Positions 24,856 to 32,000 of a stretch of 32,000 nucleotides of DNA are shown in pieces (the first letter of the stretch is position 1; each line of letters starts with the position of its first letter). The stretch lies in the NCBI GenBank assembly GCA_038728585.1, contig JAVYTR010000002.1:350369-382368 (forward strand). The letters are read 5' to 3'. Below the pieces are notes generated by a model that was not told the DNA's origin, made no database searches, and worked only from the letters and a program-made list of their open reading frames with translations. Origin of the DNA: Conexivisphaerales archaeon (GTDB taxonomy: Archaea; Thermoproteota; Nitrososphaeria; Conexivisphaerales; DTJL01). A program made the position numbers and the translations under genes.

Positions 24856-25976
24856 ATTACAAAATTGTAAGCAGTTCGAAATTAGAAAAGAGCTTTGGGA
24901 TTCTGTGTTATGGCACATCCTTCAACGGTATAGGAGGTGTAATCAAGAAGAAGCCCGAAGATTTTGTCGTGGCTGAGGTTTTGAAGGATAATGCAAGAAG
25001 GCTGATAGGTAAGACAGGAAAAGGCTATCCTCTTTACATACTTTCCAAAAAAGAAGTAGACACTCTAGAGGCGAAGGCTGTTATCGAAAAGTCGATAAAA
25101 GCCAATGTAAACATATTAGGCTTGAAGGATAGGAAAGCGCTGACTTATCAGTTTGTTTCTGCCAGGAAGAAAATAAGGTTTCAGGAAAGGGTGGAAGGGA
25201 AAGGTTTCAAAGCTATACTTACGGCCTTTACACTTAAGCCTCTGACTAAAGCCGACCTGTTTGGCAACAGCTTCAGAATTGTTGTCAGAGAAGCGAAATT
25301 GCATGATGATGCAATTGTAATGCTGAAAGATGAACTGGCTGAAGGAAAGATACCTAATTACTATGGTCCCCAGAGGTTCGGGTACAGCATATCGAACCAT
25401 GTTGTGGGCAAGCATATAATCAAGAAAGAATTTGCTGATGCTGCAGGGCTGATATTTGGAGATTCTCTACCAAAAGATGATCCAATATCTTCGCTCAGAA
25501 CTGTACCCTTACAGCTGAGAAGATTGTATGTGTCAGCTTATCAGTCATACCTGTTCAATCTCTGCGTGAGCAGAGTTCTTGAGGAAGGTCATTTAGACAA
25601 AAGGGGTCTCTTTATTACATTCCATAAAAATGAGTTGAAGGTGGACCAGAGCATAAGGACTGAGACCTCTGCAGGCAATGATACAACTTTTGTAAGGCTC
25701 TGTCCTCTGCCAGGTTACTCGTTCAGGGATAGGGATGACATGCTCTTTAAAAAGATGAGGGATGTGATGACCGAAGAAGGTGTAACTCCATCACAATTCT
25801 ATGTGAAAGAAATGCAGGAGCTGAGTGCAGAAGGAGGATTGAGGCCATTTTCCATGATTGGCTGGTTGAAAGGATGGAGATTTGACGAAAACCTTACCAT
25901 AAACTTCGTCTTGCTGACTGGAAATTATGCTACAGTTTTACTGAGAGAGCTGATGAAGACTACCATTCAAAGTTGA
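24852..25976 (+). CDS. truD: tRNA pseudouridine synthase D (TruD/Pus7 family)
   Basis: 374 aa. GIGGVIKKKPEDFVVAEV, LGLKDRKA.T.Q and PNYYGPQRFG match the family. The start overlaps the pth stop (TTGA). Confidence 0.85.
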   Translation: MNYKIVSSSKLEKSFGILCYGTSFNGIGGVIKKKPEDFVVAEVLKDNARRLIGKTGKGYPLYILSKKEVDTLEAKAVIEKSIKANVNILGLKDRKALTYQFVSARKKIRFQERVEGKGFKAILTAFTLKPLTKADLFGNSFRIVVREAKLHDDAIVMLKDELAEGKIPNYYGPQRFGYSISNHVVGKHIIKKEFADAAGLIFGDSLPKDDPISSLRTVPLQLRRLYVSAYQSYLFNLCVSRVLEEGHLDKRGLFITFHKNELKVDQSIRTETSAGNDTTFVRLCPLPGYSFRDRDDMLFKKMRDVMTEEGVTPSQFYVKEMQELSAEGGLRPFSMIGWLKGWRFDENLTINFVLLTGNYATVLLRELMKTTIQS

Positions 25977-27012
25977 GGATCTTCTGGAACCTCAGTGAAT
26001 CAAGCAGTCCTTCTGCGTAACCAGCCTGAATCAAGGCAAGCTCAGGCTTACCGTCCAGTAAAAACCTCTGTGCATCTGATAGGTAGCATTCTACGTTTTC
26101 GAACACATCATCCAGGTTGTCTATACCTTTCTCCTTTGCAATTCTCCTCCCCTTCTCCAAAGCCATCATGGTTTTGTGAATGGCCTTGTTGACCAGTGTA
26201 GCATGAGGGGGTTCAAGTTTGGTATTCGACTGTTCGAGTATGTTCTTATCAACTTCAGCTAGAGTTGCTAGGGCATCGGCTTCTGTATAATGAAGCTCGG
26301 AAGGAATTATCACGCTGTGAGGAGGCTCTCCAAAATTCTTCGTCATCATATCCTTCAGCCTACCAGCACATATCATCTGGGAAGACCAGCCCACCCTTGA
26401 GGCAACTATGACAAGCCTGTCATCCTTGAAGACACCCAGTTTGTAGTTCTCCTCCATCCTTCTGAGCTTTGCAAGCAGTTCTGATGGAGCCAAGTATTCG
26501 CCAGAATCGCTGTCATATTCCAGAAGGAAGAGGGTATGTCTGTTTCTTGTCAAGTTATCCTTTACCTCTGGGTAAAGGGAATCTTCAACCACCTTATCGT
26601 TTCTCACAGCGGTTATAATTTTTCCCAGCTTGTAGATGTGAAGACCTGTCTCTCCGAATATCGCGTTTATTATGCTTGAAGAGTAAAAGATCCTGACAGG
26701 TATCCCCATCTCCTTTGCTCTCTGTTTCAGAATGATATGCGTTGTTGCAAGGAAGGGGTCTCCCACTGTTATTACGGCAACAGCAGCTTGCTTTGCTTCA
26801 TCAAGAATCTTTCTACCATCTTCAAGAAGGGTCCTTGATGCTCTCTGGATATTCTTTCCGAGCTCTGAACTCAAATCATGAAGCAGATCTGGAGGCCACG
26901 GGCTTGTGTACATGTCAGCATAGATGATGTCGCATTCCTTTAGATATTTTAAGCCTCCCATAGGGACACTGGCCATTCCCTGAACGCCAAGCCCTACGAG
27001 ACCTAGAGTCAA
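25960..27012 (-). CDS. dphB: diphthine synthase with ~85-aa DUF357-like C-terminal extension
   Basis: Residues 1-~260 align by eye to archaeal DphB (VGLG..., YADMYTS, GDPFLATTH, TGLHIYKLGK, HTLFLLE, FGEPPHSVIIPSELHYTEA). The tail ...ECYLSDAQRFLLDGKPELALIQAGYAEGLLDSL resembles DUF357. TTG start. Confidence 0.85.
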   Translation of the reverse strand: MTLGLVGLGVQGMASVPMGGLKYLKECDIIYADMYTSPWPPDLLHDLSSELGKNIQRASRTLLEDGRKILDEAKQAAVAVITVGDPFLATTHIILKQRAKEMGIPVRIFYSSSIINAIFGETGLHIYKLGKIITAVRNDKVVEDSLYPEVKDNLTRNRHTLFLLEYDSDSGEYLAPSELLAKLRRMEENYKLGVFKDDRLVIVASRVGWSSQMICAGRLKDMMTKNFGEPPHSVIIPSELHYTEADALATLAEVDKNILEQSNTKLEPPHATLVNKAIHKTMMALEKGRRIAKEKGIDNLDDVFENVECYLSDAQRFLLDGKPELALIQAGYAEGLLDSLRFQKILNFEW

Positions 27013-27154
27013 TTTGGGTACCTGAAGAAGTCAATCCATCATACTAGGTTTATAAGTTTGACATAAAATCCTAGCTTTGGCTGAAGCTGGTTTTGTTAGC
27101 ATAAAATTCAATCATGACTGACGCGCCTTAAATGCAAAGAGTTTCGCTTTATAC

Positions 27155-27163
27155 TTAAATATA
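27155..27163 (+). promoter_or_regulatory. TATA-box-like element upstream of tRNA-Lys
   Basis: TTAAATATA lies 24-32 nt upstream of the tRNA 5' end, the spacing expected for archaeal TBP/TFB promoters. Confidence 0.35.
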
Positions 27164-27186
27164 CAGGCAAGGCTGGCAAGAAAAAC

Positions 27187-27260
27187 GGGCCTGTAGCTCA
27201 GCCAGGTAGAGCAGTCGGCTCTTAACCGACGGGTCATGGGTTCGAATCCCACCAGGCCCG
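27187..27260 (+). tRNA. tRNA-Lys (anticodon CUU), no intron, CCA not encoded
   Basis: Hand-folded cloverleaf: acceptor GGGCCTG/CAGGCCC plus discriminator G; D arm GCTC-AGCCAGGTA-GAGC; anticodon arm GTCGG-CTCTTAA-CCGAC; T arm with GGG-TTCGAAT-CCC. One A-C mismatch closes the T stem. A T-rich tract follows the 3' end. Confidence 0.88.
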
Positions 27261-27315
27261 CTTATTTTATTAACCGAATCCTTTGTTACAATGGTACTGT
27301 AACCCTATTATATCA

Positions 27316-27624
27316 ATGTCTAACAGCAAGTATTCTCATCTGCTTGATGATGAAGATGTCAGGAGATGGTTTGACAACCTTGAGGCGAGTTCTGCGGTAA
27401 CAGCTGATTAGAAACCTTGGACCCTTTAGTGTGGAAAAAACCAGATGTTCATCTGTTGGGGTTCGCCGGTAAATTTAATTGCTCGGTTGAGGAGATGGTA
27501 AATGGGAGTTCTAAAGCAACAGGTGACCCCTCTAGCTTTAGTTGACTATATCTTGTGGCTGTCAGATCAAGAAGAAGAAAGACGGCCACCGCCAGGATTT
27601 TCTTTGAGAAAACATGACTCTTAA
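27316..27624 (+). pseudogene. degraded N-terminal fragment of a tyrosine-recombinase-type integrase
   Basis: ATG at 27316 gives MSNSKYSHLLDDEDVRRWFDNLEASSAVTAD*, which resembles the N-terminus of archaeal site-specific integrases (…V.RWY.NL..GS..TAD…). Further pieces continue in shifted frames (LGFAGKFNCSVEEMV..., LVDYILWLSDQEE...), interrupted by stops. No catalytic domain was found downstream. The family assignment is from memory only. Confidence 0.35.
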
Positions 27625-28308
27625 AGATCAGACTATACTCGGTCTTGATGATATCTAAGAATTATAGTTGACAATTCAACGAACGCGTCTATTCTATTCT
27701 GTGTTCTTGACCTTAAGAGCAAGGAAAACATCAACTTTAGTCTGACCTCCATTCAATCCTATTTAATTTGTTGCCGTGGTAAGTGCAATTGCAGCGAAGA
27801 ATATGCAGAGAAGAAAACAGCCTAAAGACAGTTGAAAGACTATGTCTTTATAAAAACTTGGTCACCATGATAACCAGAAACCTACCAAGTCTCTAGACAA
27901 TTTACTTTAGCTCTAAGCATTATGATTATTAGCGGGAGAAAAGGCAAAAGAGCCGAACAGTGTTGAGAATAGAATAAGACAAGATGATTTTACATAGTAT
28001 CTCGAGCACTGTCAAGAGAGGTCATTCGTCTGCCCGCTTGGGAACATCCCTGAAGCTGCCGTATGGTCTATTCGTAAAATGCCGTCAGAGAGTGGGACCA
28101 TTAAATCGCAGCTGAGGCCGCGCGCTAAATGTATACTCGTGCAGTGACAACGTTGCTCGAACAAGTACTTTTCTATACGTTTACAAAAAGAATGTAAACA
28201 ATATCATTAAATTGTTGACGAAACGAAGTTTTACTTGGATATACTTTAAGCGATGAGATATTTCCACATGTTATGCTACCTGTACTGCGAAAATTTGTCA
28301 AACGCAAG

Positions 28309-28316
28309 TATAAATA
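28309..28316 (+). promoter_or_regulatory. TATA-box-like element upstream of the mcrB-like gene
   Basis: TATAAATA ends 21 nt before the ATG at 28337, which suggests a leaderless or near-leaderless transcript. A second TTAAATAG at 28324-28331 could serve the in-frame ATG at 28352. Confidence 0.3.
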
Positions 28317-28336
28317 GCCTAAATTAAATAGATATA

Positions 28337-30121
28337 ATGGTAGAATATGCAATGAGATACATCGCTATTCAGGGTTCTCCGGTTAATTGGATCTGGAGCC
28401 TTAGAACCCTTGGAAAGAATGAAGTAGGTCCAGGATTTCACAAAGTAAATCCCAATAGTGAGCGATCATTAACCAAAAATCAAGACAAACTATTGTGGGC
28501 TTTTCGACAAAAACAAGATTTTAATAGACTTTCCGAGATATTACAATTCGAAGAGAAGGTTCAGGTGCTCGTCATTTCAACTGTTGGAAACAGCTATCAA
28601 TTGAATGCGGGGGGTGTGATAGCGTTTGGTGAGATCGTAAAAGAAGATGTTATTGGAGAACTCAAATGGGATTATTGGCCAGAGGGTTCTGGCTGGGATT
28701 ATAAGTTTTATATAAGAATAACAAAATTAGCACCGAAGCTGCAAGAGAACTTAACAAAACTTAATAATATCCAGTCTCCAGAAATTGGTAATTTAGTTTC
28801 TGTTATGAGAGAATCAAGGGAAGATGTCTTGCCAGTCGTCCCAAAAAGCGTGACCAGAGGGTCGCTATCGGAACTGGACCATAAGACGTTTGATATATTC
28901 GAATTTCTGGCCTCTAAATACTGGGTAAAACAAAGAGAAGTCCAAATAGGTGTCACAAGCCTGTCGGAAGACCTTCAAAAGATAGCTACCATGCATCTTC
29001 TCGCGGGTAAAAATATCATAGTTTATGGACCGCCTGGAGTGGGAAAGACAATATTCGCAAAGAGTCTTTGTGAAAATCTAGGAATAGGTTTCCGTATAGA
29101 AACAGGGAACCCAGAGTGGACCGCTTTTGATGTAATTGGCGGCTACGACATTAATAATAAGTTTCGTATAGGATTTCTTACAGATGCTGTAGTTTCATGC
29201 CATATTTCACTCAAAGAGAGCGGAAGACCATATTGGTTAATTATAGACGAAATTAATAGAGCAAACCTAGATCTTTCCTTTGGTAATGCATTCACAACAT
29301 TAGATCTAGCCCACCGGCCTAATACTCCATTGGTAGAATTTTATGAAAGCCTTGACGAAAACAAGGGTAAAAATGAGAAACTAATGTCCATACTTAAAGA
29401 GTACGGATCGAAGAAGATGGCCCTATTCGTACCGTTATCCTTTAGAATTATAGGAACAATGAACAGTTATGACAGAACACTTCTATTTAGGCTAGGCTTC
29501 GCAATGATCAGAAGATTTGCTTTCATACCATTATCCACGAAAAAGTACACCCTTTCAGTAAACGATGACACTTTTATTGAACAAGCTAAAATTTTGACTA
29601 ACGAGTCTAACGAAAACTGGAAAGAGACATTTCAAAGTGCATCTCGAGAATTGATGCTGAAGGGCGACATACAAAATGATTCCGTCACCTTTAGAACCGA
29701 TTCAATGCCTCAGGAACCTTACCTGATTGACGAGAGTTTAGGCGAATTATCTTCAGATTTGAATGCTTTTAGGTTGATCCACGCGATATGCCAAAGGATA
29801 AACGAGATTTTGGTCGGTAGTCTTGAGGTGGGTATGGCTTTGGAAATTGACGCAATGAAATTTATGCTAGCCGCTACCTCATATTTTGGGGAATCATGGA
29901 AAACATTCGGTAAAGGTCTGGTTGACCAAGCGGTTAACTCATACATATTGCCACAATTTGACGCGTTATCTGAACAACTCCGAGCTGAAGCATTGGGTAT
30001 GTCAAGCAGCCAAAGTGTACAAAATAAAGTAAAAGAAGTCAATGTATTATTCAAAAATCTGCGATTGAATGATAGCTTGGCCAGTATCGAACGGATAATG
30101 AACGGGGAAAGAATCTTTTGA
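28337..30121 (+). CDS. mcrB: McrB-family AAA+ GTPase with unrecognised N-terminal (putative DNA/modified-base reader) domain and long C-terminal extension
   Basis: 594 aa. Walker A is GPPGVGKT (aa 231-238) and Walker B is WLIIDEINRAN (aa 300-310). IIGTMNSYDR corresponds to the McrB MNTADRS/NxxD motif, and MIRRFAFIPL to McrB ALRRRFSFI. Aa 1-~225 and aa ~401-594 lie outside the AAA+ core. Confidence 0.8.
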   Translation: MVEYAMRYIAIQGSPVNWIWSLRTLGKNEVGPGFHKVNPNSERSLTKNQDKLLWAFRQKQDFNRLSEILQFEEKVQVLVISTVGNSYQLNAGGVIAFGEIVKEDVIGELKWDYWPEGSGWDYKFYIRITKLAPKLQENLTKLNNIQSPEIGNLVSVMRESREDVLPVVPKSVTRGSLSELDHKTFDIFEFLASKYWVKQREVQIGVTSLSEDLQKIATMHLLAGKNIIVYGPPGVGKTIFAKSLCENLGIGFRIETGNPEWTAFDVIGGYDINNKFRIGFLTDAVVSCHISLKESGRPYWLIIDEINRANLDLSFGNAFTTLDLAHRPNTPLVEFYESLDENKGKNEKLMSILKEYGSKKMALFVPLSFRIIGTMNSYDRTLLFRLGFAMIRRFAFIPLSTKKYTLSVNDDTFIEQAKILTNESNENWKETFQSASRELMLKGDIQNDSVTFRTDSMPQEPYLIDESLGELSSDLNAFRLIHAICQRINEILVGSLEVGMALEIDAMKFMLAATSYFGESWKTFGKGLVDQAVNSYILPQFDALSEQLRAEALGMSSSQSVQNKVKEVNVLFKNLRLNDSLASIERIMNGERIF

Positions 30122-31611
30122 GTCTGGTACTAGAGTTTAGAGAAGACAAAGACTATGAATGCGATGAAATTCAAGAAGTAATAAAACAGAAGTTACCAAG
30201 CCAACAGTCATCAACTCTTGTTGATGAAATAATTGAGTTTGTAGATAAGAATCTAAACCGCAGTATGCGAATCTTGATAGAGCTCCAATATTCTGATTTT
30301 AGGATAGAGTCTCCATTACCAGTTTTTCGCCATAGAAAAAGACAGATCAATTTCGGACAATGGGTTGGTGTGTATAGATTCTACTCGGAAGAGCTAGCTT
30401 CTGAAGTTACGATAAAAGTCGTTCCTAAAATTCCTCTTCAATCGTTCACTCTTATGTTGAATGAAGTTTATGGTCTCGTGCAAATGTACGGCGTTCCGGC
30501 TTTGGACGTGGTATCGCTTAATCTGCACGGTTATAGTAATTTCCGTGATTGTCTGACATACAGTTTCCTACTAAATAGGTTAACAGAGTTAGCTTTTGCA
30601 CATGGTATAGTTAGGCAGGCTACATTCGTACGATATTCTTCTGGAATACAGATGGGCTTGATCGACAGACATAGAACAGCCTATAATTTACAAAGGGGAA
30701 TACCACTGATAGAATCCAAGAAATTTACAGCGAAGTACCCTGATCTCTTTCTTATGTTATTAGTTAGGTTTCATTTAATGCTCAGTCATGATATCAATGA
30801 GCAAGTCGCTAGATTTAGAAACTTGAATCCAAACAAGGGCGATCCGTTGGACCACATGCTGAGTACCATTAAAGTATCGCAAGCTCAACATGCTAAGTAT
30901 CTATCAGATGGTATCTTGCAGAATTACATAGCTGCAGCACTGTCTTTTGACTTTGAAGATTTTGGGCTATTACGAAATATCCGAAGCGAAGTAAAGTATA
31001 ACGAATGGTTTAAGGCAATTGTTGACCTATTCGAATCTTACTTGTCAAAAAGACCCGTCAGAGTTAAGTTAAAAGAGTCAGATCTAAGCGAAGTTGCAGT
31101 TCAACCATTACCTTCCAGTAAGGTCTACGAGTTGTGGATACTTACACTGTTTAATCGAATATATGGAAAATATAACTCCAGAAAGCCAGTTATAATGCGT
31201 ACCAATAATGGATTCGATTTCGTTTATGGAGATCTCGTGATTTGTTATAACTCTGAGAAACTAGAATGGAGTAAAATCTTCTCAAAAATAATCAGAAATT
31301 CCCCTAGACCAGATATGATACTAGCTGGGAAACATAAAAGAGCTGTGTTAGACGCAAAATACAGAGAAGTGAACCATTTAGGCGTTGAAGATATAGAAAG
31401 GATAATCAGCTATCTAGTGGATTATTCGGAACCTCAGGACCATGATGAAATAAAAGGCTTTCTTGTAACTCTTGGTGATTTGAATGTGAACGAAGCTAGC
31501 CGTAGAGATTTGGTGCCAAACCTGAGAATCTATCATCTTGTAGCTGATCCCAACCGTCCGAAAGAAGCAGAAGAAAATTTAGAAAGAGTATACCACAAAG
31601 TATTTTCGTAA
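30118..31611 (+). CDS. mcrC: McrC-like partner protein with C-terminal PD-(D/E)xK nuclease domain
   Basis: 497 aa. The TTG start overlaps the upstream stop (TTGA). The N-terminal QWVGVYRF...VTIKVVPKI matches the McrC/DUF2357 motif (VGvi...ieIlPKi). The C-terminus has E338 (YELW), P-D399 (RPDMIL) and D412-A-K414 (VLDAKYRE), a canonical PD...(D/E)xK arrangement. Confidence 0.72.
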   Translation: MSLVLEFREDKDYECDEIQEVIKQKLPSQQSSTLVDEIIEFVDKNLNRSMRILIELQYSDFRIESPLPVFRHRKRQINFGQWVGVYRFYSEELASEVTIKVVPKIPLQSFTLMLNEVYGLVQMYGVPALDVVSLNLHGYSNFRDCLTYSFLLNRLTELAFAHGIVRQATFVRYSSGIQMGLIDRHRTAYNLQRGIPLIESKKFTAKYPDLFLMLLVRFHLMLSHDINEQVARFRNLNPNKGDPLDHMLSTIKVSQAQHAKYLSDGILQNYIAAALSFDFEDFGLLRNIRSEVKYNEWFKAIVDLFESYLSKRPVRVKLKESDLSEVAVQPLPSSKVYELWILTLFNRIYGKYNSRKPVIMRTNNGFDFVYGDLVICYNSEKLEWSKIFSKIIRNSPRPDMILAGKHKRAVLDAKYREVNHLGVEDIERIISYLVDYSEPQDHDEIKGFLVTLGDLNVNEASRRDLVPNLRIYHLVADPNRPKEAEENLERVYHKVFS

Positions 31612-31628
31612 TGTTATAGCATGTTAAA

Positions 31629-32000
31629 GTGTGGTGTGGACTGTTGACTGAGGAAGATTCAAAGTTTACAATCGGTAACTTAAAGACCTTAGTGAAGGAA
31701 TTTATATCCCAAAGGAAGTGGGAAAGATATCACAATCCGAAGGATTTGGCGGAATCAATATCCGTTGAGAGTGCTGAACTACTCGAAATTTTCCAGTGGA
31801 AATCACAGGAACAGAGTTGGTCTTTGGCTATGTCTGAGAAAGGCAGGACTAGGGTAAAAGAAGAGTTGGCCGACGTGCTGATCTACTGTATAAGCTTGGC
31901 AAATGTGCTTGGCTTGGACATCAACACTATTGTCAGAGAAAAAATCAAAAAGAATTCTGATAAATATCCTACAAATGGCTCAGAGAATCTCTTCGGGTAG
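31629..32000 (+). CDS. mazG: MazG-like nucleoside-triphosphate pyrophosphohydrolase, DCTPP1/RS21-C6 (dCTP pyrophosphatase) type
   Basis: 123 aa. WERYHNPKDLAESISVESAELLEIFQWKS and VKEELADVLIYCISLANVLGLDINTIVREKIKKNSDKYP closely parallel the DCTPP1 pattern (W.QFH.PRNL...GE.GEL.E.FQWK...; L.EELSDVLIYL...DL...I..K...N...YP) with the ExxE...ExxD metal motifs. The start is GTG 31629 or TTG 31644. The TAG stop is the last three bases of the window. Confidence 0.8.
   Translation: MWCGLLTEEDSKFTIGNLKTLVKEFISQRKWERYHNPKDLAESISVESAELLEIFQWKSQEQSWSLAMSEKGRTRVKEELADVLIYCISLANVLGLDINTIVREKIKKNSDKYPTNGSENLFG

Follow-up and report, generated by a model that had tools for sequence, protein, structure and literature searches.

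In Nitrososphaeria, integrated elements insert chiefly at the 3′ ends of tRNA genes (PMC6563490), and archaeal islands that arise in this way are ordinary and well described. The case considered here is a low-GC tract that begins at the 3′ end of a tRNA-Lys(CUU) gene and encodes an integrase remnant followed by a McrBC-type defence cassette. It lies at the end of a window of 32,000 nucleotides (by "the window" we mean this whole stretch, G000:C2:350369-382368) from G000, a 1.93-Mb, 27-contig draft genome of a Conexivisphaerales archaeon with an estimated completeness of 99.6% and an estimated contamination of 0.74%. Its closest described counterparts are the cryptic integrated elements of Krupovic et al. 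2019: in Thaumarchaeota, 39 of 68 elements lie in tRNA 3′ regions, with XerC/D-type integrases and restriction genes, and some integrated elements of the class have been inactivated (PMC6563490). The locus matches these catalogued elements in its host class, its tRNA 3′-distal target, the XerC/D-type integrase at its border and its restriction or defence cargo; it departs from them in that the integrase is a 31-codon stub, no attachment (att) repeat was found and the right border is unassembled. Based on the position of the junction, the homology of the stub and the content of the tract, we propose that the DNA 3′ of tRNA-Lys is probably the left end of an old element insertion, whose integrase has been reduced to the stub and which now carries the McrBC-type cassette. 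The features concerned are collected in the table.

Table. Features at the tRNA-Lys junction of the window, with positions numbered from the first base of the window.
Feature	Positions	Strand	Basis or remark
Diphthine-synthase-type methylase	25960-27012	-	With C-terminal DUF357 domain (Pfam E 1e-11)
tRNA-Lys(CUU), intact	27187-27261	+	ARAGORN; Rfam RF00005, 64.4 bits
Element-type spacer	27262-27315	+	27272-27290 (AACCGAATCCTTTGTTACA) resembles the family GTTCnnAACC + TATA motif
Tyrosine integrase N-terminal stub, 31 codons + TAG stop	27316-27411	+	tblastn, family HMM
AT-rich DNA, no recognisable gene, ~0.93 kb	27412-28336		No Pfam, Rfam or integrase-HMM match
McrB-like AAA+ (AAA_5) NTPase, 594 aa	28337-30121	+	Pfam AAA_5 E 2.5e-12
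McrC-like partner, 497 aa	30118-31611	+	4-nt overlap with McrB-like gene; structure model + Foldseek
MazG-like / DCTPP1-like nucleotide pyrophosphatase, 123 aa, complete ORF	31629-32000	+	Last gene before contig end

The break at the tRNA is real. The guanine-plus-cytosine fraction (GC) is 0.466 over positions 1-27186 and 0.387 from 27262 to the end of the contig; the maximum-likelihood single change point falls directly after base 27261 (0.466 on its left side and 0.388 on its right; two-log-likelihood support 26994-27651), and composition is uniform from 27262 onward. The island belongs to the lowest 4% of the genome's 4.8-kb windows (z -2.3), and the GC at third codon positions (GC3) of its two large open reading frames (ORFs), 0.37 and 0.344, corresponds to the 8th and 5th percentiles of 1230 long ORFs, as against 0.44-0.49 in the neighbouring core genes and about 0.47 genome-wide. 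Gene organization changes at the same place: upstream lie housekeeping genes with overlapping ends (MarC, PTH2, TruD and the diphthine-synthase-type methylase, as recognized by Pfam), and across 27262-28336 the longest ORF has at most 59 codons. ARAGORN calls no tRNA in the window other than this tRNA-Lys, and the attachment site is presumed to lie at the 3′ end of the gene, on the left (attL) side. A first-pass annotation, made from the letters of the window, had placed a break exactly here, between dense, overlapping housekeeping genes and about 1 kb of ORF-free AT-rich DNA, and had read the latter as the start of a horizontally acquired element; its description of the junction is borne out by these results.

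The border beside the target tRNA holds a tyrosine integrase, as a remnant only. The ATG of the stub stands 54 nt past the tRNA end, and positions 27316-27408 share 53-64% identity with intact relatives by tblastn (five relatives as queries, E-values from 1e-7 to 2e-8), the identity of the stub to relatives spanning 53-68%, while a hidden Markov model (HMM) of 76 homologs matches the stub at HMM positions 1-23 (E 5e-7). By tblastn, and by the HMM run on whole frames and on stop-to-stop fragments, the detectable integrase is confined to residues 1-31; neither method found anything above chance elsewhere in 27262-28600, including 27409-27624, and weak, collinear-looking matches at 28148-28310 were rejected as further integrase (E 1-3). 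Past the stop, the +1 frame reads LIRNLGPF where the family has YLRRLGxF, a resemblance that was noted by eye and is not significant; the remnant may reach about 27433, with some eight more codons in that frame and about 40 in all. Hence the frameshifted integrase N-terminus that had been annotated over 27316-27624 shows similarity to integrases in its first 31 codons alone, and the gene is truncated, to 31 or perhaps 40 codons, instead of frameshifted. Because similarity stops abruptly while the stub is about as well conserved as intact copies are among themselves, it is more likely that the gene was truncated by deletion or replacement than that it eroded through slow point decay. The copy in the window has no catalytic domain and is a dead remnant. 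No intact integrase of the family was found elsewhere in G000, a weak match at C2:210982 having proved to be a CoA-transferase. As neither a catalytic domain at this site nor an intact copy in the rest of G000 is available, the evidence supports the view that the element cannot excise by its own enzyme, in keeping with the earlier suggestion that it is now fixed.

The habits of the intact relatives are informative in this regard. The stub frame matches N-termini in nine other genomes of the order, and open frames of 419-441 aa in G001 (like G003 and G005, of the same family as G000 and of other genera), in G026 and G027 (both of the same order) and in G029 represent intact relatives. The full-length sequences align well and place R145, Y266-x-x-R269, H296 and Y304 (alignment A1) at the positions of the tyrosine-recombinase boxes, and a profile of the intact relatives matches XerA of Pyrococcus abyssi (4a8e, E 1.8e-7). 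A YxxR box is the signature of pNOB8-type integrases and KxxR that of the SSV1 type (PMC8371274). The relatives of the stub share with the pNOB8-type (type II, classical) integrases (She et al.; PMC8371274) the R...YxxR...Y boxes, a gene that is whole and tRNA targets; they differ in their length of about 420 aa, in a distinctive N-terminus (LLxDxDVRRWYDN) and in a match to Pfam Phage_integrase that is below threshold (best E 3.5e-5), and the copy in the window lacks the catalytic domain in its entirety. A scan of species-representative genomes returned 287 relatives, the best 80 of which (loci L035-L114) come from Bathyarchaeia, Nitrososphaeria, Thermoplasmata, Hadarchaeia and others. Upstream sequence exists for 74 loci, and 42 of these have a tRNA on the same strand whose end lies 50-130 nt ahead of the integrase match, a count that is a lower bound as ARAGORN overlooks intron-bearing tRNAs. 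These 42 tRNAs represent 21 anticodons; tRNA-Lys(CTT) accounts for three, including the one in G027. The stub in the window is laid out likewise, with its 54 nt between tRNA and ATG. Intact integrase ORFs start 50-130 nt past complete tRNA genes, so that the gene stays whole on integration and the att site lies outside the ORF. The genes accompanying intact family members are varied (winged helix-turn-helix, NACHT/STAND-HD, AAA_15/23 and serine-recombinase genes, some of them defence-like), as in typical cryptic integrated elements. A search of IMG/VR returned no member of the family, and in G301, G302 and G303 the att repeats sought for intact family members proved uninformative. The sole other trace of it in G000 is a fragment covering residues 65-169 (C3:63536-63916), which lies by a tRNA (C3:63195-63289).

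The ORFs that follow constitute a McrBC-type cassette. Beyond its AAA_5 domain, the McrB-like protein gives a partial match to the NCBIfam McrB model (E 2e-11, below the family cut-off) and finds E. coli McrB (6hz4, E 5e-11) as its best PDB sequence match. The partner yields no Pfam, NCBIfam, PADLOC or PDB sequence match. The top Foldseek matches of its AlphaFold model (built on 13 homologs; predicted local distance difference test score 79) are McrC chains, 6ut7_G (E 9e-10) and then 6hz4_M and 6ut6_G, and D399, D412, A413 and K414 are invariant in the alignment of 13 homologs, forming a PD-(D/E)xK-type motif. The AAA_5 and McrB matches, the Foldseek result and the D...DAK columns together identify a McrB-type AAA+ nucleoside triphosphatase (NTPase) with an adjacent McrC subunit. 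The pair is thus comparable to the McrBC type IV systems of E. coli and Thermococcus gammatolerans (6hz4, 6ut6, 6ut7), in which likewise a McrB-type gene goes with a McrC-fold partner, here overlapping it, with a D...D-x-K motif. It differs from them in the unrecognised 225-aa N-terminus and long C-terminal tail of its McrB, in a partner that has no McrC match at the sequence level, and in a conserved third member, the MazG/DCTPP1-like gene (Pfam MazG-like E 4e-19; PDB 4qgp E 1e-21; DCTPP1 E 1e-17). Based on these relationships, the cassette is predicted to restrict modified viral DNA.

The distribution of the cassette is patchy. Only 14 homologs of the McrC-like partner, at identities of at most 40%, were recovered among 5.8 billion proteins, and a search of 300 other genomes of the class with the window's protein as query found none. 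The partner is encoded on 24 metagenome contigs, most of them with a GC of 0.35-0.40; the McrB-like gene always lies 5′ of it where sequence exists, and a MazG-like gene lies 3′ of it on eight. The defence cargo of the first-pass annotation can accordingly be specified as a McrBC-type cassette that did not turn up in relatives, and the horizontally acquired element it had envisaged at the tRNA gains support from this result together with the compositional break and the tRNA-adjacent integrase family. On one of the metagenome contigs (Ga0209225_1013461; L122:37-4498) the homologous cassette is situated about 0.77 kb past a tRNA-Pro CGG, and the stretch between the two has no detectable integrase.

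We accordingly envisage the following history. An element encoding a tyrosine integrase of the classical kind (pNOB8-type, lambda-like) would have recombined at the 3′ end of tRNA-Lys(CUU), an event that would have kept the tRNA whole and placed the integrase gene directly behind it in the same orientation. The integrase would then have been cut to its first 31 or so codons, probably by a deletion or replacement whose left boundary fell a short way into the gene. What remains would be immobile foreign DNA expressing a three-gene defence cassette of McrB-like NTPase, McrC-like nuclease and MazG-like pyrophosphatase; we infer that the cassette arrived with this element. If so, the locus marks the start of foreign DNA in the draft genome and explains the contig break a few kilobases later, and the McrB/McrC/MazG cassette is to be counted as accessory, mobile DNA rather than as part of a lineage-specific core. 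It would also illustrate cleanly how loss of the integrase from the vehicle leaves an archaeal defence cassette fixed in place, and it adds nothing conceptually new to what is understood of tRNA-targeted archaeal islands.

Several observations weigh against this proposal. Firstly, the integrase family of the stub is present on none of the 24 homologous cassette contigs, for which reason the link between integrase and cassette is positional only. Secondly, contig C1 of the same genome has a native, gradual GC trough of 120 kb (G000:C1:60000-230000), and seven small low-GC contigs carry housekeeping genes (aminotransferases, topoisomerase, STT3, phosphoglucomutase, peptidases); they probably belong to the C1 trough and, in view of these genes, were rejected as a continuation of the island. 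Because the genome has such a trough, low GC alone is not diagnostic of foreign DNA here: by GC, change point and GC3 the island is unlike the host core, and that contrast, on which the first-pass annotation had leaned, is real and yet weaker as evidence than it had assumed. The case for foreign DNA therefore rests on the abruptness of the GC step and on gene content, not on low GC itself. Within the trough, GC falls from 0.45 to 0.32 near 156 kb and then rises back; several tRNAs lie inside it, as does a peak of 0.55 at 180-188 kb.

Thirdly, comparison with relatives gives no clean empty site. The tRNA-Lys of the window is 100% identical to those of G001 and G003 and 99% identical to that of G005, and the diphthine-synthase-type gene adjoins it in all three. 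In favor of an insertion, sequence similarity with G001 and G005 stops at the 3′ end of the tRNA, and beyond it G001 and G003 have unrelated housekeeping genes, with an ABC transporter in G001 and an FKBP isomerase and a phosphoesterase in G003. The downstream regions of the relatives differ mutually, however, and as the G000 counterparts of what follows tRNA-Lys in G001 and G003 are scattered (the FKBP ortholog, G000:C2:347313-347987, is 30 kb upstream of tRNA-Lys), no empty site can be drawn. In G003 (L020, G003:C10) the FKBP gene directly follows tRNA-Lys, so that a rearrangement breakpoint coincides with the tRNA/att site. Fourthly, G003 has no island, and yet its tRNA-Lys trailer resembles that of the window over about 33 nt; the stretch immediately past the tRNA, up to a few tens of bases, may thus predate the cargo, and the G003 trailer may be what remains of an old insertion from this family of elements. 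Finally, the right end of the island is unassembled. Contig C2 stops 129 nt past the window (at the equivalent of position 32129), 4.87 kb 3′ of the tRNA, and no contig ends overlapping the end of C2 were found. The direct repeat of the tRNA 3′ half that the first-pass annotation expected as the right attachment site (attR) did not appear: neither in these 4.87 kb nor in the rest of the assembly does the tRNA end recur over 9 nt or more. A k-mer search of the island returned two 8-mers of the tRNA end where 2.2 are expected by chance, and blastn-short with the tRNA 3′ half plus trailer across the assembly hit nothing but T-arms, all belonging to other tRNAs, of which one at C1:413345 has an intron. 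In this class an att site may measure as little as 8 bp (PMC6563490); given this and the unassembled right end, the missing attR is uninformative.

Some of the same facts invite a reading in two events, wherein an older element left the stub and spacer behind as its scar and the cassette came later by a different path, for example through recombination at a variable hotspot or replacement of the cargo, such that the stub marks a hotspot and not the vehicle. The occurrence of the cassette without this integrase on all the related contigs and the G003 trailer without an island are readily accommodated by such a history, as are the abrupt end of similarity after codon 31, with 0.9 kb of unrelated DNA behind it, and a codon composition that remains unameliorated in the island even though the integrase is almost gone. 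Broken integrase copies are also common in the order (9 of the 14 matches outside G000 have open frames shorter than 330 aa). Against this reading, neither 27412-28336 nor any other part of the island shows a second recombinase, a transposase, a repeat or a junction signature, and composition is uniform from 27262 onward. Copies of integrase 3′ ends, looked for in the island as cassette junctions, were not found. We consider two events unlikely, if worth keeping in mind.

More artefactual is the possibility that the assembler joined two organisms at the 75-nt tRNA-Lys, leaving a low-GC tail from another genome. The number of contigs in the draft, the complete identity of the tRNA with those of other genera, the shortness of a tail that ends its contig and the inclusion of several small low-GC contigs in the bin would all be compatible with a chimera. 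Nonetheless, those small contigs fit the genome's own C1 trough, the contamination estimate is low, and a repeat of 75 nt is spanned by ordinary reads and read pairs. Moreover, tRNA-Lys followed by this integrase recurs in G027, of the same order, and G000 has the other integrase relic by a tRNA on C3. A chimeric join is hence highly improbable.

An SSV-type "suicidal" integrase, whose gene would have been cut in two as the element integrated, leaving the stub as Int(N) and Int(C) at the opposite end of the element, is barely credible and was rejected on the family's layout and YxxR box: the restriction to an N-terminal piece by an att-bearing tRNA does recall the split integrases well known in archaea (PMC7253208; PMC8371274), but intact family genes lie whole beside tRNAs that are outside the ORF, the box is of the pNOB8 type and not KxxR (PMC8371274), the stub starts 54 nt past the tRNA, reads away from it and does not end in att sequence, and no C-terminal fragment exists anywhere in the assembly.

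Returning to the single insertion that we favor, the non-coding parts of the island offer further detail. Scans of 27412-28336 gave no meaningful repeats or promoter/terminator signals, and this gap resembles neither relatives nor the sequence that precedes homologous cassettes. Some 25 nt ahead of the start codon of the cassette, a TATA-like box (28309-28316) is a putative promoter for a leaderless transcript. In the spacer between tRNA and integrase, 25 of the 42 integrase-adjacent tRNA trailers have a GTTCn(1-2)AACC palindrome with a TATA-like box behind it, as against 0 of 40 others (0/10 other tRNAs of the same loci, 0/30 trailers of G000), a pattern that was picked after the data were seen. 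In support of the insertion, the spacer of the window has a variant of this motif, ..GAATCC(T/A)TT.., in common with G001:C26, where it comes after tRNA-Arg CCG and ahead of some 7 kb of lower GC, and with G005:C32, where it comes after tRNA-Val and precedes a frameshifted full-length integrase. The palindrome and TATA box may represent a putative operator or arm site.

On a broader view, the family of about 420 aa could be an undescribed, very widespread lineage with a conserved palindromic operator (GTTCnnAACC) and a TATA box directly behind the captured tRNA; its N-terminal stubs would survive next to tRNAs in several genomes since deletions stop short of a tRNA that the cell needs, and the family would provide a general archaeal route for immobilising defence cargo; taken as a whole, this generalization strikes us as decidedly doubtful. 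Remains of other copies do occur next to tRNAs in G005: at G005:C94:35100-35500 (L156) a tRNA precedes a stub of about 50 codons, with lower-GC DNA beyond, and at G005:C32:15000-16400 (L158) a full-length copy with several frameshifts lies by a tRNA and is likewise followed by DNA of lower GC.

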